Of a DNA stretch of 64,000 nt, positions 2,915 to 11,764 are shown in pieces. How positions within the stretch are numbered: position 1 is the first letter of the stretch; each line of letters begins with the position of its first letter. Location: IMG/VR virus record IMGVR_UViG_3300049563_000052, positions 33,020 through 97,019 of that record, one strand, 5' to 3'. Both the position numbers and the translations under genes were made by a program. The notes under the pieces are model-generated. The model searched no databases and was not told where the DNA came from. It saw only the letters and a list, made by a program, of their open reading frames with translations. The stretch comes from a virus. Its lineage: Duplodnaviria > Caudoviricetes.

Positions 2915-3279
2915 GATCCCTCCGGCGGTGCGGACGAGGTGATCTGGTCGGCGTCCATCGCGAGCCGCAGCAGCCGCGCCGCCAGCGACCGCGCCTCGTT
3001 CGGGGTGAGGGCCAGATACGGATCGCCGAGCACGGTCAGGGATACCCACACCGGCACCTGCTTACCGTCGTCGGTGCGCCGGCCGCCGCGCTGATCCAGC
3101 CCGGTCTCGATGTCGTCGGGGAAGGTGCCGGTCATGAACATCCTCGTGATCTCTGGGGTGACGATCATGGGGTCGGACACGTACCGCGTTTGGCCGTCCT
3201 CGTCGGTCTCGGCGCGCAGCGGGATGAACGTCCCACCCGGCCCGGTCACGCTGACCTGCGGGTGCAGCGGATCGGTCAC
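2911..3279 (-). CDS. Hypothetical protein (C-terminal LTPNEARSLAARLL motif)
   Basis: GTGA-coupled start; motif common in actinophage small proteins. Confidence 0.65.
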   Translation of the reverse strand: MTDPLHPQVSVTGPGGTFIPLRAETDEDGQTRYVSDPMIVTPEITRMFMTGTFPDDIETGLDQRGGRRTDDGKQVPVWVSLTVLGDPYLALTPNEARSLAARLLRLAMDADQITSSAPPEGS

Positions 3280-3605
3280 AGCGCCTCCAACGCGTCGTAC
3301 AGATCGCCGGGCCAGCCGAAGCCCTGCGGCAGGTCGGTCGCCTCCGATGCGCGGGCCCACGCCTCCCGCACCGCCTCCACCCGCCGCTCCAAGGCGGGCA
3401 GGTCGTTGTCTGCGGCGAGGGCTTCGATGTCGGCGTCGAGTACCCGGTAGCAGTAGCCGGACACCAGCCGCATCGCCTCGACCACCGACGCGTTCGCGCC
3501 GGTGCCCCACCCGAAATCGTCGGCGAGCGCGCGCAGCGTGCGGAAGGTGACGATCAGATCGGCGACGTCGATGTAGTTGGGGCTGCCCTGTTCGGGGGCT
3601 GTCAT
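3276..3605 (-). CDS. Hypothetical protein
   Basis: 109-aa ORF coupled to its neighbours. Confidence 0.65.
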   Translation of the reverse strand: MTAPEQGSPNYIDVADLIVTFRTLRALADDFGWGTGANASVVEAMRLVSGYCYRVLDADIEALAADNDLPALERRVEAVREAWARASEATDLPQGFGWPGDLYDALEAL

Positions 3606-3808: not shown

Positions 3809-4180
3809 GGCGTGTATCTCCTCCCGGCGCGCGTGTATCTCCGGGCATCGTATGCGCGCCAGGCGTGCCGTTTTCACGGGGGCTCGGCGACACCCCGGCA
3901 CCCTGCCAGGCCCGATCGCAGTGTCAACACCGTCTTGACAGCCAGGCGTGTATCTCCAGACTCCGCGGGTGCACACCCCGGCCGCACCCGTTTTAGCGGG
4001 GGCTCGCACCACAGGGCGTGTATCTCCGCCCTGGCGTGTATCTCAAGGGCCTCTTACCAGGACTGCCCCCCACCGGGCCATGCCCCCGCCCCCCATGATC
4101 CCCACCCGAGACCACACCCCCACGTGCGCACACCCGTGTGCGTCACACGTGTATCGAGAGCAAGGTCAGCAGAGATACAC
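3809..4180. repeat. Cluster of GCGTGTATCTC direct repeats plus two CCGTTTTnnCGGGGGCTCG repeats
   Basis: Copies at about 3809, 3830, 3945, 4015 and 4033; partial at 4148; inverted at 4172-4180; second motif at 3868-3886 and 3988-4006. Confidence 0.85.
3922..3940. promoter_or_regulatory. TGTCAA-N7-TTGACA inverted repeat (copy 1)
   Basis: TGTCAACACCGTCTTGACA; its reverse complement matches 48218-48236 at 17/19 positions. Confidence 0.5.
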
Positions 4181-4211
4181 CTATCCTCAGCACCATGATC
4201 AGTAGCAAGCC

Positions 4212-4547
4212 ATGGTGTTGTCACTGTTGTCGCTGACCATGTTGTCGTCGTCGACTGAGCAGTTCGTGCGACCCACTGGCCATCGCTGGCGCAAAGCTGT
4301 TGCGGCTGTGCGCAAACGCAGGCCAATGATCTGCACGCTGTGCGCACAGCCCATCGATCTGTCGCTTGCCTACCCTGACCCTTGGTCCTTCAGCGTGGAT
4401 CACACGGTAGCGATAGCCGAAGGTGGAGACCCGTACGAGCCGAAGAACCTCGAACCAGCTCATCTGATTCACAACATCCAGAAGTCCACACGATCACACT
4501 GGTCTGCGATCGACGCCAGCGCATGGATCGCCGACGAAGACCCCTGA
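4212..4547 (+). CDS. HNH endonuclease (terminase-associated type)
   Basis: CxxC...SVDH...GG...NLEPAHLIHN motif; lies just upstream of the packaging genes. Confidence 0.9.
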   Translation: MVLSLLSLTMLSSSTEQFVRPTGHRWRKAVAAVRKRRPMICTLCAQPIDLSLAYPDPWSFSVDHTVAIAEGGDPYEPKNLEPAHLIHNIQKSTRSHWSAIDASAWIADEDP

Positions 4548-4796: not shown

Positions 4797-5549
4797 GTGA
4801 CACAGACGCTTCCGCGGCGTACCGAGTACATGCGCGTCGATGAGATGCACGAGGCGGACATCAACCCGAAGGGCCACGACGAGCGCCGCATCAAGCTGTC
4901 CATCGAGCGGTGGGGGTTCCTGGAGCAGCCGGTGCTGGATGAGCGCACCGGCAAGCTCGTGCACGGGCATGGTCGTCTGCACCAGCTGGTCTCCATGCTC
5001 GGCGAGGGGCAGGACCCGCCGGACGGGATCACCACCGACAAGCAGGGGCACTGGTTGTGGCCGGTGACGCGGGGCTGGTCGTCGCGCAGTGACGAGGAGG
5101 CGTTGCAGGTCGGGGTGGCGCTCAACCGGCTGACCGAAGTCGGCGGCTGGGCGGATCTGGAGGGCCTGACGGGGATCTTGGACGCCGCCAACGACCTCGA
5201 CCCGGCGCTGCTGGACGTGATCGGCTACTCCAGCGACGAGCTGGATGATCTGCACGCCACGTTGGAGGAGACGGGCGGGGTGGCGGATCCGCAGGCCCGG
5301 ACGCGGGACGGGATCCCGGAGCGGCTGGACGCGTACGAGCACGCAGGCACCCACACGATCATCTTGGTGTACTCGAACACGGTCTTCGGCTGGGCGATCG
5401 ACAAGCTGGGTCTGGTCGCCGAGCAGCGCGGTTTCGACTCCAACGCCGAGGTGGTGTTGGCGCTGCTGAGCGAGGCGGTCGGGGAGTCGCCGCCGCCGGG
5501 CAGCGCGCTCGACGGGGGAGGTGACGCGGATGCCGGTTCGGCTGCGTGA
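4797..5549 (+). CDS. ParB/Srx N-terminal domain protein associated with DNA modification
   Basis: NPKGHD...SIERWGFLEQPVLDERTGKLVHGHGRL...ALNRLTEVGGW ParB-like motifs. Confidence 0.85.
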   Translation: MTQTLPRRTEYMRVDEMHEADINPKGHDERRIKLSIERWGFLEQPVLDERTGKLVHGHGRLHQLVSMLGEGQDPPDGITTDKQGHWLWPVTRGWSSRSDEEALQVGVALNRLTEVGGWADLEGLTGILDAANDLDPALLDVIGYSSDELDDLHATLEETGGVADPQARTRDGIPERLDAYEHAGTHTIILVYSNTVFGWAIDKLGLVAEQRGFDSNAEVVLALLSEAVGESPPPGSALDGGGDADAGSAA

Positions 5550-6519
5550 GATCCGGGCGCGGCGGCGGCTGACCCCCAAGCAGGCGTCGGAGTTGGTGGG
5601 GCTGACGGCCCCGGCGTACGACCCGACGTTCACCGATGCGGTGCTGGTGCGGGACGCAGGCTCCGGCGCCCCGCAGCTGATCTACACCCCGATCGAGGGT
5701 GGGGTCGGGGACCTGCGGCGGGCGGTGTTGGGCATCGACAAGTGGAACCCGGTGCAGCGGGCCAGCGGCATGTACGGGGACTCCCGCACGTTCGGGTCCT
5801 ATCCGCGGCGGCCGATCTACGGCCGGGAGGGCTGCACCCCGACGCAGCTGTCCACAGAGAACCCGCAGCTGCACGGGGTGCTGCTGCGCTATGCCAACGA
5901 TCTGAGCGCGTCGCTGGCGGAGTGGGTGCCGTCAGTGTTCGCACAGGGCATCGCGGAGGTCACCCCGGTCAAGGCGGAGTGGCGGCTGGGCGAAACCACC
6001 TGGACCTCCGGCGTGATCAACAATTCGACGGTGCTGCCGTACCACCGCGACGCCGGGAACTTCCGGGCCTGGTCGGCGATGCCCGTCATCCGCAGGCAGA
6101 TGGCGGGCGGGGCGCTGCACCTGCCGGAGTACGACCTGACCGTGCCGTGCCGGGACGGGTGGTGTGTGCTGTTCCCCGGGTATGAGCTGGTGCACGGGGT
6201 CACCCCGATGCGGCTGCGGCAGCGCGACGGCTACCGGTTCAGCGTGGTGTTCTATGCGCTGCGCGGCATGCGGGACTGCGCCACCGTGGCGCTGGAGACC
6301 GCACGCGCCCGGGAGATGCGCACCCAGCGGGAGCGCAGCATCGCGGCCCGGCTGGTCACCGGGGAGCCCGCCGACATCCGGGATTACCGCACCGCCGGGG
6401 CCGTCTCTGCCGCCCACGGCCGCGATCCGCGCGTCGCGAAGAAGGCATCCGGGCGGCTGATCGGCGGCCGGGACACCCGCAGCATGCGCCCGGACCCGCC
6501 GCGGGTGGGTGATCGGTGA
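5530..6519 (+). CDS. TET/JBP-family 2OG-Fe(II) dioxygenase (5-methylpyrimidine oxygenase)
   Basis: TSGVINN...YHRDAGN (HxD), LVHGVTP (distal His), RFSVVFY (2OG-binding Arg); GGGGGAGG RBS. Confidence 0.88.
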   Translation: MPVRLREIRARRRLTPKQASELVGLTAPAYDPTFTDAVLVRDAGSGAPQLIYTPIEGGVGDLRRAVLGIDKWNPVQRASGMYGDSRTFGSYPRRPIYGREGCTPTQLSTENPQLHGVLLRYANDLSASLAEWVPSVFAQGIAEVTPVKAEWRLGETTWTSGVINNSTVLPYHRDAGNFRAWSAMPVIRRQMAGGALHLPEYDLTVPCRDGWCVLFPGYELVHGVTPMRLRQRDGYRFSVVFYALRGMRDCATVALETARAREMRTQRERSIAARLVTGEPADIRDYRTAGAVSAAHGRDPRVAKKASGRLIGGRDTRSMRPDPPRVGDR

Positions 6520-7352
6520 TGCCGCGTGGACGTCCCCGCGAATACCAAGTGGCGGTGCCGTCGTTCCGGCGGGCGGACAGCCTCAGCGCGCGGGCGCTGC
6601 CGTGGCTGCTGGGGTCGGGGGTGCGGCCGAGCCGCATCACCGTGTTCACCCATGACCATGACGAGCAGCTGGACGCCTACCGCGCGCTGACCACGTCGGC
6701 CGGGGTGGAGTTGGTGACCACGGACCGGCGCGGCATTACCGCTCAGCGGGAGGCCATCATCGGCGCCTACCCGCCGGGGACACCGCTGGTGTGCGTCGAC
6801 GACGACGTGACCGGCATCGAGGAGGCCCTGGACAAGAAACGGCTGCGGCCCGTCGCCGACGTCGACGCCCTGTTCACCACGATGTTCACGGAGTGCTTCG
6901 CCCGGGACCTGTGGGTGTGGGGGCTGGCGCCGGTGGTGAACGCGTTCTACCTGACCCCGGGCCGGCTGTCCGAAGGACTCAAGTTCCTGATCTTCACGGT
7001 GTTCGGATGTTTCACCCGACCGGGGCATCCGGTACACCGGTTCACCGTGCCTTACAAAGACGAGCACGAGCTGAGCCTGCGGGCGTGGTGGTGGGACGGT
7101 GCGGTGCTGCGGCATGACGGGATGGCCGCCCGCGCGAACTTCTACACGCTGCCCGGCGGCTGCCAAGGCCAACGCACCCCGGCCGCGGTGGCGGAGTCGG
7201 TGGCGAGCCTGCGGCAGCAGTGGCCGGGGCTGATCCGGCTCAACACCCGCAAACGGGACACCGGCTACACGGAGATCACGCTCGCGGCCAAGCCCCGCCA
7301 TGGCGGGCACCCGGCCACGGTCGGGCCGCCGGGACAGCGGAGGTCGGCGTGA
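6516..7352 (+). CDS. TET-associated glycosyltransferase (TAGT/GREB1-like, GT-A fold)
   Basis: VAVPSFRRA N-terminus, GITAQR, VCVDDDV (DxD), KDEHELSL; coupled to the TET gene. Confidence 0.85.
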   Translation: MMPRGRPREYQVAVPSFRRADSLSARALPWLLGSGVRPSRITVFTHDHDEQLDAYRALTTSAGVELVTTDRRGITAQREAIIGAYPPGTPLVCVDDDVTGIEEALDKKRLRPVADVDALFTTMFTECFARDLWVWGLAPVVNAFYLTPGRLSEGLKFLIFTVFGCFTRPGHPVHRFTVPYKDEHELSLRAWWWDGAVLRHDGMAARANFYTLPGGCQGQRTPAAVAESVASLRQQWPGLIRLNTRKRDTGYTEITLAAKPRHGGHPATVGPPGQRRSA

Positions 7353-7708
7353 ACGCCCGGCACGTCGAGCTCACCTGGGAGTACACCCGCTGGACGGGCG
7401 AGGCCCTGGAGCAGGCCATTCCCGGGGAAGCCTGCCGGTACTCCGCGACCGTGACCATGCACCCGGCCGCGCCGCCGCCCGGGGTGGTGGTGTTGGTGTG
7501 GGTGTTGGTGCCGTCGCTGGCCCGGCTGGGCAGCTACGTCGCCGGGGCGCACATGGTGCCGATCGAGGCGGTCACCGAAGAGACGGTCAAGGACGCCACC
7601 CGCACCGCGGTCGGGCATGCCCTGCAAGGCCGCACCGAACAGCTCAAGGCCCTGAACGGCGGCCCGGGTGGGATGGCGTTCCCGCCGCTGGATTGGAAGC
7701 CGGAATGA
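7349..7708 (+). CDS. Hypothetical protein
   Basis: GTGA-coupled start with GGAGG RBS. Confidence 0.6.
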   Translation: MNARHVELTWEYTRWTGEALEQAIPGEACRYSATVTMHPAAPPPGVVVLVWVLVPSLARLGSYVAGAHMVPIEAVTEETVKDATRTAVGHALQGRTEQLKALNGGPGGMAFPPLDWKPE

Positions 7709-7917
7709 CGGACCGGGTCTTCCACGCCGCGCAGGTGCGGCGCGGGCAGCGGGTGCTGATCACCACCACGGATGCGCCGGAGATGGCGCAGGACCGGGCG
7801 GAGATCGTGGAGATGTTGCAGCAGCGGTTCCCGGGGGTGGAGTTCACGCTGCTGTGCGGCGTGAGCGGGCTGGTGGTGACCAGCAAGGAAGACGGCACCC
7901 CCGGGCGGCGGGCGTAG
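7705..7917 (+). CDS. Hypothetical protein
   Basis: ATGA-coupled; MTDRVFHAAQVRRGQRVLITTT... Confidence 0.55.
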   Translation: MTDRVFHAAQVRRGQRVLITTTDAPEMAQDRAEIVEMLQQRFPGVEFTLLCGVSGLVVTSKEDGTPGRRA

Positions 7918-8603
7918 TGGCGACCTCGCAGAACGGCTGGCCCGCGGGGGACGCGGTCCGGCTGCGCATCTGGGACATCCCGGGCACCGCGCGGCGGATC
8001 CGGCTGGCCGACGGGGACGCCGGGTGGCTGCTGGTCGACTTCGCGGCGTGGTTTCACCGCGAGATCGAGCCGATCGACGAGGGTCAGCTGGACGACTGGG
8101 GTTACGCGTTCCGGGTCATCCGGGCCGGGGTGGCATTGAGCAACCATGCGTCCGGGACGGCGATCGATCTGAACGCGACCCGGCATCCCCTGGGGAAACG
8201 CGGCACGTTCCGCCCCGACCAGGTGGCGAAGATCCGGGCCCGGCTGCGGCTGTACGACGGCTGCCTGCGGTGGGGCGGGGACTACACCGGGCGCCCCGAC
8301 GACATGCACATCGAGATCAACAAACCGGCGGGGGCGGTGGCGGCGGTGGCCGCCCGGCTCCGCGGCGGCGCCGCGCCGACCGAGGGGGATGACGAGTTGA
8401 CACCCGAACAGGCCCAGCAGCTGCGGCTGCTGTGCTCGCAGGTGGTGTGGGGCGAGAAGGACGGCCCGGCGCCGTGGGGGTGGCCCACGTGGAACGGCGG
8501 CTCGGGTGAGGTGCTGACCCTCGTCGACTACCTGCGGCGCGCCAACGAACGCGACGAGAAGATCCTCCAGCTGCTCCAAGACATCGCCGGGCGAATGCCG
8601 TGA
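7917..8603 (+). CDS. Endolysin-like peptidase, M15 family
   Basis: SQNGWPA, DDWGYAFR, SNHASGTAIDLN, RWGGDY, DDMHIEI zinc-peptidase motifs as in actinophage LysA. Confidence 0.88.
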   Translation: MATSQNGWPAGDAVRLRIWDIPGTARRIRLADGDAGWLLVDFAAWFHREIEPIDEGQLDDWGYAFRVIRAGVALSNHASGTAIDLNATRHPLGKRGTFRPDQVAKIRARLRLYDGCLRWGGDYTGRPDDMHIEINKPAGAVAAVAARLRGGAAPTEGDDELTPEQAQQLRLLCSQVVWGEKDGPAPWGWPTWNGGSGEVLTLVDYLRRANERDEKILQLLQDIAGRMP

Positions 8604-9373
8604 GCACCGCGTTGCGACTGGTGGCACGGCCGGGGTGGGGGGAGCTGGTGGCGGGGGGATTGCCTGGTCCGGCGCCGCGGGTGCTGCTGTTCACCGGCGG
8701 GGTGGCGTCGCTGTGCGTGTGGTACCTGACGGGGGCGCCGCTGCCGGTGTTTGTGCAGATCGGCGCCCCGTACGAGCTGGCCATGGCGGAGGTGCTGGAC
8801 GGGTTGGCGCAGCGCATCGCCGGGTTCGAGCCGGTGACGCTGACCGGGCCGCCGATCGGGGAGAACGCCGACGTCACCGCCGGCTACATCCCGCATCGGC
8901 ACCTGGCGCTGCTGGTGGCGGCGGCGGCGTGGATGCGCCCCTCGGTGATCTACACGTCGACGGTGCTGGGGGAAGTCGAGGCGGACCGGTCGCGGGCATG
9001 GCACCGGGCCACCTCCCGCGCGTTGGCCGGTGACGGCCCGACGATCCGGGTGGTCGCCCCGGCCGCCCGCATGACCAAGACCGGGCTGCTGCGCCGCACG
9101 CTGCGCGACTATCCGCAGGTGGCGGAGCTGCTGCCGTTGACGCGGTCGTGCTACCTGCCGGTGGGGCAGCCCTGCGGGGCGTGTCCGGGCTGTTTCCGGC
9201 GGGCCGTGGCCGAGTTCCACTGCGGACTGCGGGCGAACCCGCCGCTGCTGCCCGAAGAGGCCGGGTGGGGCAGCGGGTGGGCCGCGGCCCGGCAGATCGG
9301 GGTGCGGCGCTGGCCGGGGCTGGCCGTGGACGGGGCGCTGTCCGGGTTGGCGCTGGCCGGGATCCGGGTCTGA
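8600..9373 (+). CDS. QueC-like (PP-loop ATPase, Zn-binding) protein with degenerate motifs
   Basis: LLFTGGVAS (cf. SGGxDS), YIPHRH (cf. VPxRN), MTK, TRSCY...CGACPGCFRR. Confidence 0.8.
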   Translation: MSTALRLVARPGWGELVAGGLPGPAPRVLLFTGGVASLCVWYLTGAPLPVFVQIGAPYELAMAEVLDGLAQRIAGFEPVTLTGPPIGENADVTAGYIPHRHLALLVAAAAWMRPSVIYTSTVLGEVEADRSRAWHRATSRALAGDGPTIRVVAPAARMTKTGLLRRTLRDYPQVAELLPLTRSCYLPVGQPCGACPGCFRRAVAEFHCGLRANPPLLPEEAGWGSGWAAARQIGVRRWPGLAVDGALSGLALAGIRV

Positions 9374-9376
9374 GCG

Positions 9377-9634
9377 ATGATCTCTGTTGAGGATCGGCAC
9401 CCGGCCACGCAGCACCTCGCGCGGTGGCTCACGCCGAACATGCAGCTGCCGCCGGAGGCGTTGGCGGTGTCCACGCTGTGTTGGGACATCGGCGGGGACA
9501 TGATCGCCCGGCTGCCGGATGGGCCGGAGCTGTCCGAGGGCCTGCGGAAGCTGCTGGAGGCCAAGGACTGCTTTGTGCGGGCCGCGATCGGGGCCGCGGC
9601 TGCCGCCGCCCGCGGACCGGGAGCGCCGCGGTGA
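9377..9634 (+). CDS. Small helical-hairpin protein, Acb2/Tad1-like (DUF7681-type)
   Basis: LPPEALAVS...LPDGPELSEGLRKLLEAKDCFVRAAI, a conserved phage motif. Confidence 0.6.
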   Translation: MISVEDRHPATQHLARWLTPNMQLPPEALAVSTLCWDIGGDMIARLPDGPELSEGLRKLLEAKDCFVRAAIGAAAAAARGPGAPR

Positions 9635-10176
9635 GCCGCAGCACCGAAGGGCTGGGCCGTAAAAGCCCGCGGCTGCGGCGCACCAAAGCCGAAACCGAGC
9701 AGTGCCAGGAGCGGGCGCATTTCCTGCGGACGGTGGGGGCGCTGGACTTCGACCGGATCGCCGAGTCCCCGGACCCGACCGGTACCGGGCCGTCGCTGTA
9801 CAGCAACGCCGCCGCGGCCCGGCAGGCGTACCTGGCGCACGCGACCCGGGTCCGCGGCACCAAAGAAGAGCCTGCCCTGACCGTGCGGGAGCGTCGCGCC
9901 CTCACCGATGATCGCTATGAACGGATACTGCAAGCGTGGATGGTGAAGGCGCTCGGCGGGTCCGAAACCGCGACCATGCTGTGCCTGCGCGCCCTGCACG
10001 ACCAGCAAGAACTGTGGGGGCTGCGGATCCGACCGTCCTCACCCGACATCGAGGAGTCCACCGAGGACGTCGCCGATGACCTCGCAGACCGCCGCGCCAC
10101 CAAACGCTCCAAGGCCCGCGCCGACGCTCTACGGCAGACAAGAGCCCGCCCGCCTACTGCTCCCCCCGGAGACTGA
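9631..10176 (+). CDS. terS: Terminase small subunit
   Basis: HTH-like N-terminus, C-terminal DDLADRR; overlaps the start of terL. Confidence 0.7.
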   Translation: MSRSTEGLGRKSPRLRRTKAETEQCQERAHFLRTVGALDFDRIAESPDPTGTGPSLYSNAAAARQAYLAHATRVRGTKEEPALTVRERRALTDDRYERILQAWMVKALGGSETATMLCLRALHDQQELWGLRIRPSSPDIEESTEDVADDLADRRATKRSKARADALRQTRARPPTAPPGD

Positions 10177-11764
10177 CCGGCTGGTCACGGCGGGCCCGGA
10201 GGTGGTCGAGCTGGCCGCCACCACCGGGCTGTACCTGGATCCGTGGCAGGAGTATTGCCTGGACTGCGCGCTGTGGGAGCAGCCGTCCCCGGAGGACCCG
10301 TCCGAAGACGCCTGGGAGTGGTCGGCGTTCGAGGTCGTGATCTTGGTGCCGCGGCAGAACGGCAAGGGCTCCATCTTGGAGGCGCGGGAGCTGGCCGGGC
10401 TGTTCCTGTTCGAAGAGGACCTGATCCTGCACTCCGCGCACGAGTTCAAAACCTCGACGGAGGCGTACCGGCGGATCAAGGGCCGGATCGAGAACACGCC
10501 GTGGATGCTGCGCCGGGTCGCCGCGAACGGGTTCCAGTCCGCGCACGGCAACGAGGGCATCGAGCTGAAACCCACGAAGGTCATCATCTCGGGGTCGTCG
10601 GGGCGGCACATCTCCGGCGGCCGGGTGTGCCGGCTGCGGTTCGTCGCGCGCACCACTGGCTCCGGGCGTGGTTTTACGGCGGATTTGGTGATCTGGGATG
10701 AGGCGTTCAACCTGCCGGAGACCGTCGTCGGGGCGCAGCTGCCGACGCTGTCCGCGGTCCCGAACCCGCAGCTGTGGTACACGAGCTCGGCCGTGGACAA
10801 GGACGTCCACCAGTGGGGGGTGACGTTGGCGCGGGTGCGGGCCCGCGCGCTGGCCGCGATCGCCGGGGAGCCGCCGCCGCCCGGCGCGGAAGCCGACGAC
10901 GACATGGCCGGGCTGGTGTGGCTGGAGTGGCAGGCCGACGAAGACGCCTTCCGGGCCGCGATGGACACCGGTGTGGCCGCGACCCGCAACATGGCCCGCA
11001 CCCGCAGCGAGTGGGCGGCGTCGAACCCGGGGCTCGGGTTCCGGCTGCGGGAGCGGCGCATCGCCCGCGAGGTCCGCGCCATGGGCCTCAAGACGTTCAT
11101 CGTGGAGCGGCTGAACATCGGGGACTGGCCGGAGCTGGACGAAGACGCCCGCCGCATCGAGACCGACCGGTGGGCGCTGATCGCCGACCCGGGATCCCGG
11201 CCCGGCTCCCCGATCGCGTTGGCGTTCGAGGTGAGCCTGGACGGGCGCACGGCGGCGGTCGCGTCCGCGGGGCGGCGTGAGGATGACGACCGGTTCCATA
11301 TCAAGGTCACCGACCACCGCCCCGGCGGCGGCACGGCGTGGGTGGTGCCGCGGATCATGGATTTGGTCGCCCGATACAACGTCTGCTGCGTGATCTACAA
11401 CCCGGCCGGTCAGGGCGGGGCGCTGGCGGTGGACCTCGAGAATGCCGGGCTGCACCGGTGGCATCCGCACCACCCCGGCAAGGGCGGCATGCGGGGGCTG
11501 TCCGGGCGTGAGCTGGCCATGGCGTGCGGGGAGCTGGTCGGCGACACGACCGCCGAATCCGACCGCCTCCGCCACTGTGGGCAGCAACCGCTAGATGATG
11601 CGGTCAAGGAGGCCGGTACCCGACCTCTGGCGGACGCGTGGGCTTGGGACCAGCGCAAGTCCACCGCCGACATCACCCCACTGGTTTCGGTGACCTGCGC
11701 GTTGCACGGGTTTCGGGTGCACGGCGCGGAAGAGGGAGCGACCCCGTGGGGGGAGTGGGTGTGA
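10076..11764 (+). CDS. terL: Terminase large subunit
   Basis: LDPWQ, VPRQNGKG Walker A, GRGFTADLVIWDEA Walker B, ASNPGLG, C-terminal DITPLVS. Confidence 0.95.
   Translation: MTSQTAAPPNAPRPAPTLYGRQEPARLLLPPETDRLVTAGPEVVELAATTGLYLDPWQEYCLDCALWEQPSPEDPSEDAWEWSAFEVVILVPRQNGKGSILEARELAGLFLFEEDLILHSAHEFKTSTEAYRRIKGRIENTPWMLRRVAANGFQSAHGNEGIELKPTKVIISGSSGRHISGGRVCRLRFVARTTGSGRGFTADLVIWDEAFNLPETVVGAQLPTLSAVPNPQLWYTSSAVDKDVHQWGVTLARVRARALAAIAGEPPPPGAEADDDMAGLVWLEWQADEDAFRAAMDTGVAATRNMARTRSEWAASNPGLGFRLRERRIAREVRAMGLKTFIVERLNIGDWPELDEDARRIETDRWALIADPGSRPGSPIALAFEVSLDGRTAAVASAGRREDDDRFHIKVTDHRPGGGTAWVVPRIMDLVARYNVCCVIYNPAGQGGALAVDLENAGLHRWHPHHPGKGGMRGLSGRELAMACGELVGDTTAESDRLRHCGQQPLDDAVKEAGTRPLADAWAWDQRKSTADITPLVSVTCALHGFRVHGAEEGATPWGEWV

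Follow-up and report, generated by a model that had tools for sequence, protein, structure and literature searches.

A ParB-TET/JBP-glycosyltransferase cassette in an uncultured high-GC actinophage: a predicted route from thymine to a base-J-like nucleotide

Three overlapping genes, coding for a ParB-like protein, a TET/JBP dioxygenase of the 5mYOX class and a TAGT glycosyltransferase, were analysed as a putative DNA modification cassette in a stretch of 64,000 nucleotides (the window), which comprises bases 33020-97019 of the 97,019-bp IMG/VR record IMGVR_UViG_3300049563_000052 from an uncultured virus. The source of the locus is an uncultured, high-GC soil actinophage (~70% GC in the window), and its record is ~91% complete according to the CheckV estimate, with no terminal repeats found. 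Overall, the cassette is best read as a chain in which thymine would be oxidized by the ParB-activated dioxygenase and then glycosylated to a base-J-like nucleotide, to which we assign a probability of about 0.62. As for its parts, the identities of the three genes are close to certain, and thymine is quite probably the native substrate. Neither the association of these genes, foreseen in 2013, nor the enzymology of the first step, published in 2025-26, is new.

The gene structure was derived from the G+C content at third codon positions (GC3), analysed by frame, together with the lists of open reading frames (ORFs). Leftward genes run to ~3808 and are followed by a divergent intergenic region, after which a packed rightward operon starts at 4212. 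The earlier note, made from the sequence of the window, had described three overlapping ParB, TET/JBP and glycosyltransferase genes at 4797-7352 and had placed them at the start of the late region. Both their coordinates and their identities were borne out by the ORFs, the GC3 analysis, the PHROG matches and the predicted folds, and the trio, encoded on the + strand, does stand at the head of the rightward late operon, upstream of the terminase, portal, protease and capsid genes. The ParB-like and dioxygenase genes overlap by 20-29 nt, and the dioxygenase and glycosyltransferase genes by 1-4 nt.

The dioxygenase, with a TET-like predicted fold, is assigned to the TET/JBP (5mYOX) enzymes on the basis of its homologues, its invariant catalytic residues, the top structural matches, all of which were TET proteins, and the absence of a TGT domain from the record. 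Its score against the Pfam family Tet_JBP (PF12851) was 31.3 bits (E 1.4e-7), or 33.2 bits in the record-wide search, with a gathering cut-off of 34.9, and PF12851 is listed for it and for many of its homologues in the precomputed table of the collection. Moreover, it matched phrog_6059 at 3e-78, and a total of 663 homologues were retrieved by a word-indexed search, mostly 45-57% identical to it and one of them at 80%. Residues H172, D174, H222 and R236 (numbering of P0002) were invariant in 41 aligned homologues, with H172-x-D174 and H222 forming the HxD...H iron triad and R236 being the 2-oxoglutarate arginine, in sequences that carry the motifs LPYHRD, LVHGVTP and GYRFS. When the AF2 model (pLDDT 82.8) was compared with the PDB by Foldseek, the top 26 matches were CcTet, NgTET1, human TET2 and CMD1; the TET matches had E-values from 2e-10 to 7e-8, FTO and AlkB ranked lower, and the identity to the eukaryotic TETs in these alignments was 12-17%. 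No meaningful match to PDB sequences was found by phmmer or profile searches. Among phages of Mycobacterium, Gordonia and Rhodococcus, the homologous gp2/gp3 proteins are 44-48% identical to it and are annotated as 'thymidine hydroxylase' or 'Tet-like J-binding protein'. Furthermore, ~80 residues follow the invariant C250, which is the last conserved cysteine, and these form a helix that is conserved (250-277), followed by a basic, disordered tail reaching residue 329.

Another name is in use for this family. Both phrog_6059 and RefSeq records such as NC_011044 (Nigel) and NC_023741 (Stinger) carry the label 'queuine tRNA-ribosyltransferase', while newer GenBank homologues are named 'oxidoreductase', 'Tet-like J-binding protein' or 'thymidine hydroxylase'. 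A queuine tRNA-ribosyltransferase or DpdA was considered for the gene of the window and rejected, as there is no PF01702 TGT domain in the record and the predicted fold is a TET-type beta-helix. Judging from the modelled fold, the motifs and the content of the record, the older label is a mis-annotation for this dioxygenase.

The glycosyltransferase is, as far as its profile matches and its predicted structure indicate, a divergent TAGT. It scored 22.1 bits against the Pfam family TAGT (PF20691), for which the cut-off is 27.5, and the same profile matched 36 of the 45 members of its family, the best at 3.2e-14. In addition, it matched phrog_25200 at 1e-33 and phrog_842 (beta-glucosyl-HMC-alpha-glucosyltransferase) at 2e-6. 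The AF2 model, with a pLDDT of 95.3, presented a GT-A fold and matched POMGnT1, GnT-I, SpsA and WrtF in the PDB; at the sequence level, phmmer and profile searches of the PDB gave no meaningful match. In the comparison with the predicted viral structures of BFVD, the best match was a Synechococcus phage glycosyltransferase (TM 0.80), and further matches included many TAGT-domain proteins (TM 0.66-0.80) and the T-even beta-glucosyl-HMC-alpha-glucosyltransferase. An N-terminal IPSxxR motif is present, and the metal/nucleotide-sugar motif DDD (D94-D96) was invariant or nearly so in the family.

Regarding the ParB-like protein, the GTG start at 4797 was preferred over the ATG at 4830 of the database call (239 aa), because the residues preceding the latter (LPRRTEY) are conserved in homologues. 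The protein matched the PHROG ParB families phrog_620 (1.2e-14) and phrog_723 (7.5e-12), and its N-terminus matched the N-terminus of phrog_498, a 'DNA methyltransferase', at 2.3e-14. Its putative N-terminal ParB/Srx-like module, with the motifs NPKGHD, GHGR, RGWSSRSD, NR and GGW, is followed by a linker and by a predicted, conserved C-terminal domain; the motifs contain invariant columns in the alignment of ParB-like proteins, in which GHGR is invariant as a whole. The C-terminal 60 residues aligned with gp1 of Mycobacterium phage Indlovu (E 2e-8) and with P0185 and P0187, and no helix-turn-helix (HTH) domain family was detected in the protein by Pfam. An exhaustive profile search gave 19,636 representative relatives at E<=1e-3, and 23 of the 29 long relatives examined carry the N6_N4 DNA methyltransferase domain (PF01555), for which reason the N-terminal module (conserved as NPKxHD, GHGR, RGWxSRSD, NR and GGW) is seen, at the level of sequence, as a widespread phage module that accompanies DNA-modifying enzymes. 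Furthermore, between 11 and 90% of the members of its feature and structure neighbours in the ESM Atlas carry ParB_N, either alone or fused to an N6_N4 methyltransferase or to a PAPS reductase. By analogy with the published pairs described below, the ParB-like protein is presumed to be the activator of the dioxygenase.

A host-type parS-like palindrome, CGTTTCACGTGAAACG, was also observed. It occurs once in the record (L006, 16827-16842; 31827-31842 of the contig), ~1.2 kb before the window, from which it is absent, and the ParB-like protein of the cassette has no recognizable HTH to bind it.

The earlier note had also reported that no C5-methyltransferase was recognizable in the 64 kb. This is true of the window by the PF00145 search, and the same search found none in the whole record of 97,019 bp. 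Likewise, no methyltransferase of the N6/N4 (PF01555) or D12 (PF02086) class was found in the record, in which the Tet_JBP search, taken as positive control, recovered the dioxygenase gene. Among 20 related records with the cassette, PF00145 was absent from 19 (among them 9 of the 10 with a completeness of at least 90%), and it was absent as well from the four complete cultured phage genomes with the cassette (4/4). The only related record with C5-methyltransferases was G001 (the record of locus L009), where two such genes appear at 39.4-43.6 kb, ~25 kb from the cassette. Two other routes to modified thymine were considered and rejected. For the pre-replicative synthesis of 5-hydroxymethyldeoxyuridine (5hmdU), no hydroxymethylase of the thymidylate synthase family (PF00303) was found in the record. 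For a hypermodification by kinase and AADT, the record gave no match, in single-sequence searches of limited sensitivity, to Tonitrus gp6 (aGPT-Pplase2) or to the kinase-like gp5 of Indlovu.

The conservation of the cassette was established from an IMG/VR scan with the glycosyltransferase family, which gave 39 loci. One of them, in the 11.7-kb contig IMGVR_UViG_3300049565_000017 (L008), is a near-identical copy of the window phage, with a glycosyltransferase identity of 100%; because its stretch from the dioxygenase to the large terminase (TerL) is essentially identical to that of the window, it is taken as the same phage assembled twice, and the counts refer to the other 38. The dioxygenase gene adjoins the glycosyltransferase gene in 32 of the 33 related loci having at least 900 nt of upstream DNA, and a ParB-like gene is present in all of those with enough DNA further upstream (24/24), with identities of the glycosyltransferase ranging from 23 to 100% across the related loci. 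TerL follows the cassette within ~1.6 kb in 28 of the 38 loci, and the terminases belong to three unrelated clusters. The nearest distinct relative, L047, shares 70% identity in the ParB-like protein, 80% in the dioxygenase and 89% in the glycosyltransferase, and has the small-terminase-like gene and TerL in the same order. A permuted order, ParB-glycosyltransferase-TET in place of ParB-TET-glycosyltransferase, was observed in L030 (4125-6294).

The trio also appears in cultured phages, namely in the Mycobacterium phages Indlovu, Acadian, Baee, Serendipitous and others (genes 1-3) and in Arthrobacter phages such as Prairie (genes 62-65). Mycobacterium phage Prince and Rhodococcus phage Tonitrus have the same ParB/TET front end together with genes for a 'DNA glycosylase' or an aGPT-Pplase2 and kinase-like genes. 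The fact that the same front end is followed by differing genes in these relatives points to a modular downstream chemistry. No sugar-tailoring gene recurred 3' of the glycosyltransferase gene in the related viral loci, where only terminase, portal and small ORFs did. Finally, a megablast search of the region against cultured phages gave no match, and NCBIfam gave nothing useful on the proteins of the region.

These observations were set against what has been published on such enzymes. The association of the genes was predicted by Iyer et al. 2013, who, in the account given of that work in PMC8256090, proposed that ParB directs the modification during packaging. The route through 5-methylcytosine (5mC) was shown by Burke et al. 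2021 (PMC8256090), with adjacent methyltransferases. Pyle et al. (bioRxiv 10.1101/2023.12.21.572611; Cell Rep 2024) found that phage GT-A enzymes, which resemble the base-J glucosyltransferase, glycosylate 5-hydroxymethylcytosine (5hmC), and that most contigs with 5mYOX and glycosyltransferase genes lack a methyltransferase and probably make 5-hydroxymethyluracil (5hmU). More recently, O'Toole et al. (PNAS 2026, PMC13229309; preprint 10.1101/2025.08.14.668559, August 2025) mined IMG/VR and described two subclasses of phage thymine dioxygenases. In that study, the ParB-adjacent 5mYOXs of clade C1 made almost no 5hmU alone in Escherichia coli and converted 25-35% of T at most with their own ParB; in vitro, ParB was required on canonical double-stranded DNA (dsDNA), and the oxidation of T to 5hmU is post-replicative (PMC13229309). 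The ParBs associated with 5mYOXs keep the NBD and the CTD and are missing the DNA-binding domain, and the ParB-dependent 5mYOXs have a C-terminal extension, required for activity, past the last shared cysteine (C280 in 5mYOX176) (PMC13229309). According to the same survey, a C5-methyltransferase is present in only 6% of the 5mYOX neighbourhoods, the commonest neighbours being glycosyltransferases, ParBs and terminases, and its authors discuss a partial, sequence-specific modification with possible roles in packaging (PMC13229309).

From the homologous pairs of PMC13229309 and from the gene context, we infer that the pair encoded in the window oxidizes T to 5hmU with activation by ParB, and the family, the fold and the near-obligate synteny of the glycosyltransferase suggest that it acts on 5hmU in DNA to give glycosyl-5hmU. 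In the proposed mechanism, the cassette would be expressed late and the phage DNA would be modified after its replication. The Fe(II)/2-oxoglutarate dioxygenase would hydroxylate the methyl group of thymine in the double-stranded phage DNA to 5hmU at preferred contexts, for which the ParB-like protein encoded upstream would be needed as its activator on dsDNA. The TAGT would then use a nucleotide-sugar as donor and attach its sugar to the hydroxyl just formed, so that a glycosyl-5hmU similar to base J would be formed at a subset of the thymines. The mark may protect the DNA from host nucleases, play a role in packaging, or both. Thymine is favoured as the substrate because the published ParB-dependent 5mYOX class oxidizes T and because most of the related records lack a C5-methyltransferase. 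Therefore, of the two substrates offered by the earlier note, thymine or 5mC methylated by the host, the former is now the better supported, and the latter stays as a rival. That note had also suggested that the ParB-like protein may target the modification or couple it to packaging; the role that has been published is that of an activator of the dioxygenase on dsDNA.

A close likeness is to the pairs of clade C1 (e.g. 5mYOX176/ParB176, 185 and 177; PMC13229309). In both cases, the dioxygenase gene comes right after a short ParB-like gene without an evident DNA-binding domain, there is no C5-methyltransferase neighbour, a terminase is nearby, the sequences come from the viral metagenomes of IMG/VR and, as far as the published description allows the two to be likened, the dioxygenase has a C-terminal extension past its last conserved cysteine. 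The make-up deduced for the ParB-like protein, a putative nucleotide-binding-type N-terminal module plus a C-terminal domain and no recognizable HTH, agrees with that published for the ParBs associated with 5mYOXs. The difference lies in the downstream enzyme, which in the window is a TAGT with a GT-A fold, whereas PMC13229309 stresses kinases, AADTs and GATases. The order ParB-like, TET/JBP and TAGT-like is also that of the cassettes of the Mycobacterium phages Indlovu, Acadian and Baee (genes 1-3) and of Arthrobacter phage Prairie (62-66), to which the dioxygenase is 44% and the glycosyltransferase 33-36% identical and the C-terminal region of the ParB-like protein is homologous. The mycobacteriophage cassettes stand directly upstream of the terminase. 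However, phages of the Indlovu and Prairie type add a PIG-L-type 'glucosaminyl deacetylase' after the glycosyltransferase, and Indlovu also has an 'adenylate kinase'-like P-loop protein there, neither of which was found in the record of the window.

Compared with base J of kinetoplastids (JBP1/JBP2 and JGT), the predicted chemistry is the same, as a TET/JBP enzyme would hydroxylate thymine and a GT-A-type enzyme would glycosylate the product, and JGT has close structural counterparts in the phage GT-A DNA glycosyltransferases (10.1101/2023.12.21.572611). In contrast, the system of the window is devoid of a J-binding or SWI2/SNF2 domain and presumably relies on a separate ParB-like activator instead. 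With the phage clusters of C5-methyltransferase, TET and glycosyltransferase (PMC8256090; Pyle et al. 2024) it would have in common a post-replicative TET oxidation followed by a GT-A step, and ParB, terminase and lysozyme are shared as frequent neighbours. In those clusters, on the other hand, a C5-methyltransferase is encoded alongside and the products are 5hmC derivatives at GpC sites, whereas the common DNA methyltransferase families are absent from the record of the window. As for the phage fusions of ParB with N6/N4 methyltransferases, their N-terminus corresponds to the ParB-like N-terminal module; however, the module of the window is stand-alone, has a C-terminal domain of its own and would partner the dioxygenase in trans.

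Several points weigh against the proposed chain. In the literature searched, no chemical demonstration of glycosyl-5hmU was found in any phage, nor a published assay of a TAGT on 5hmU, nor chemical data for a phage with the ParB-5mYOX-TAGT set. The Pfam scores of the dioxygenase and of the glycosyltransferase are both just below the curated cut-offs, the Pfam family ParB_N (PF02195) does not match the ParB-like protein, and this protein is without a match to PDB sequences, even by family profile. The family ParB_N matched 1 of 60 relatives at E<1e-3, and when it was run on the ParB-like family and on four annotated actinophage ParB-like proteins, it gave a single weak match. Moreover, the ParB-dependent subclass is tied mainly to kinases, AADTs and GATases, and the glycosyltransferases mainly to the ParB-independent clade (PMC13229309), and the likeness of the cassette to clade C1 is one of gene context and published description. 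Finally, 5mYOX97 and 5mYOX176 oxidize 5mC and T comparably in vitro (PMC13229309), and the record is ~91% complete, which leaves room for a methyltransferase in the part not assembled.

The last two points bear on the first of the alternatives, in which the substrate is 5mC made by a methyltransferase of the host, or by one of the phage in the unassembled ~9%, and the product is a glycosyl-5hmC. Since the characterized 5mYOXs act comparably on both bases, the specificity of the enzyme alone does not decide against 5mC; in addition, the sugar transfer demonstrated to date for TAGT-type GT-A enzymes is onto 5hmC (10.1101/2023.12.21.572611), and G001 does carry C5-methyltransferase genes, albeit at a distance. 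A search of the literature for the methylome of the host gave no usable result. Nevertheless, this alternative is considered improbable, given that the C5-methyltransferase is missing from the 97 kb, from nearly all the related records and from every complete cultured genome with the cassette, and that the published phage TETs of the 5mC type form separate clades with the methyltransferase as immediate neighbour, while those associated with ParB proved experimentally to be T-dioxygenases. It is very unlikely that 5hmU (or 5-formyluracil or 5-carboxyuracil) is the final mark and that the glycosyltransferase acts on an acceptor other than DNA, such as virion proteins or a glycan of the cell envelope. 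Glycosyltransferases of actinophages are thought to glycosylate virions (PMC13313380), the one of the window falls below the Pfam cut-off for TAGT, and no sugar-nucleotide genes are nearby; however, its family adjoins the dioxygenase in all but one of the informative loci, its gene is translationally coupled in the window, and the structures that match it best, those of TAGT-domain proteins and the T-even HMC glucosyltransferase, belong to enzymes acting on DNA; moreover, most of its family is recognized by PF20691.

Other alternatives concern the purpose of the mark rather than the chemistry. If the ParB-like protein coupled a sequence-selective modification to packaging or ejection, instead of serving mainly against restriction, the position of the cassette beside the terminase genes would be explained. 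The recurrence of TerL shortly 3' of the cassette, with three unrelated TerL clusters involved, is in line with this, as are the frequency of terminases among the neighbours of 5mYOX genes in the published survey and the packaging roles discussed in PMC13229309 and PMC8256090. On the opposite side, the cassette of Prairie is found in the right arm, at a long distance from the structural genes; in the window, the glycosyltransferase and terminase genes have five others between them, and the adjacency may simply reflect a preferred site of insertion where the late operon begins. Such a coupling is held to be unlikely. A bolder version, which we regard as a long shot, is that the ParB-like protein is a general adaptor that loads phage DNA-modifying enzymes onto DNA, loading near the packaging site and carrying the dioxygenase and the glycosyltransferase along the concatemer. 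If so, a sequence-selective glycosyl-5hmU (a 'phage base J') would be laid directionally on the DNA bound for the capsid, and the mark would serve packaging or ejection, beyond anti-restriction alone.

The coordinates of the cassette and of its neighbours are collected in Table 1.

Table 1. Genes of the modification cassette and of the adjoining part of the rightward operon (positions in the window)
Feature	Position	Strand	Remarks
HNH endonuclease	4212-4547	+	directly upstream of the trio; phrog_338 at 1e-19; GC3 ~0.7
ParB-like protein	4797-5549	+	250 aa from GTG at 4797; PHROG ParB families
TET/JBP 5mYOX dioxygenase	5521 (or 5530)-6519	+	329-332 aa
TAGT glycosyltransferase, GT-A fold	6516 (or 6519)-7352	+	277-278 aa
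119-aa ORF	7349-7708	+	4-nt overlap with the glycosyltransferase gene (translational coupling); GC3 frame plot
70-aa ORF	7705-7917	+	68% identical to a 73-aa gene 3' of the glycosyltransferase gene in L047
M15 peptidase lysin	7914/7917-8603	+	
QueC-like protein	8600-9373	+	PF06508 at 27.7 bits
85-aa ORF	9377-9634	+	
Small-terminase-like ORF	~9640-10176	+	73% identity to the L047 gene, same order
Large terminase (TerL)	10076-11764	+	phrog_9 TerL at 6.7e-62; 85% identity to the L047 gene
Portal, protease, major capsid protein	downstream of 11764	+	continue the late operon

Two small ORFs follow the glycosyltransferase gene, and neither of them matched any Pfam or PHROG family. The 119-aa ORF was seen only in the window phage and in the near-identical contig, being absent from the nearest relative, L047, while the 70-aa ORF, which has a counterpart there, could be part of the modification module or of the packaging module. 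On the other side of the cassette, at the presumed position of cos, only the HNH gene and a 250-nt gap lie ahead of the ParB-like gene. The GC3 of this HNH gene is lower than that of its neighbours (at least 0.9), and it falls in the 2-kb bin with the lowest G+C content of the window, which suggests a recent acquisition of the kind of HNH gene that accompanies terminases. Furthermore, where the leftward genes and the HNH/ParB late operon diverge, the intergenic DNA contains an array of GCGTGTATCTC, with five exact direct copies within 235 bp (3810-4044) starting at 3810, 3831, 3946, 4016 and 4034, where ~0.8 matches would be expected per whole window at one mismatch or fewer. An inverted pair with the same core is found nearby (4146-4182). 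The array is a candidate for the binding of a regulator or of the terminase.

Further downstream, the QueC-like gene codes for an orphan PP-loop protein with a degenerate ATP-binding loop (TGGVAS vs. SGGxDS) and a conserved C-terminal cysteine cluster. The Atlas clusters closest to it are QueC-like families specific to viruses, and a tblastn search against cultured phages gave no match. In L047, the slot between the 70-aa ORF and the small-terminase-like gene is occupied by a PTPS/QueD-like gene (3064-3438), and in the window the same slot (7917-9634) holds the M15 lysin, the QueC-like gene and the 85-aa ORF, so that two different enzymes similar to those of the preQ0 pathway share one variable slot in these related phages. 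A 7-deazaguanine DNA system around the QueC-like gene was rejected, since TGT/DpdA, PTPS/QueD and GTP cyclohydrolase I (FolE) were not found in the record and, in the related loci, the presence of the gene is not linked to that of the cassette.

Taken as ParB-activated oxidation of thymine followed by glycosylation, the cassette would join the published class of ParB-activated thymine dioxygenases directly to a TAGT, in an example from a high-GC actinophage. Since the searches of the record recovered neither a methyltransferase nor a kinase or AADT, few of the predicted routes by which a bacterial virus could turn T into a base-J-like nucleotide would be simpler. Moreover, homologous cassettes are present in cultured, easily grown phages of Mycobacterium and Arthrobacter, which makes the prediction directly testable.

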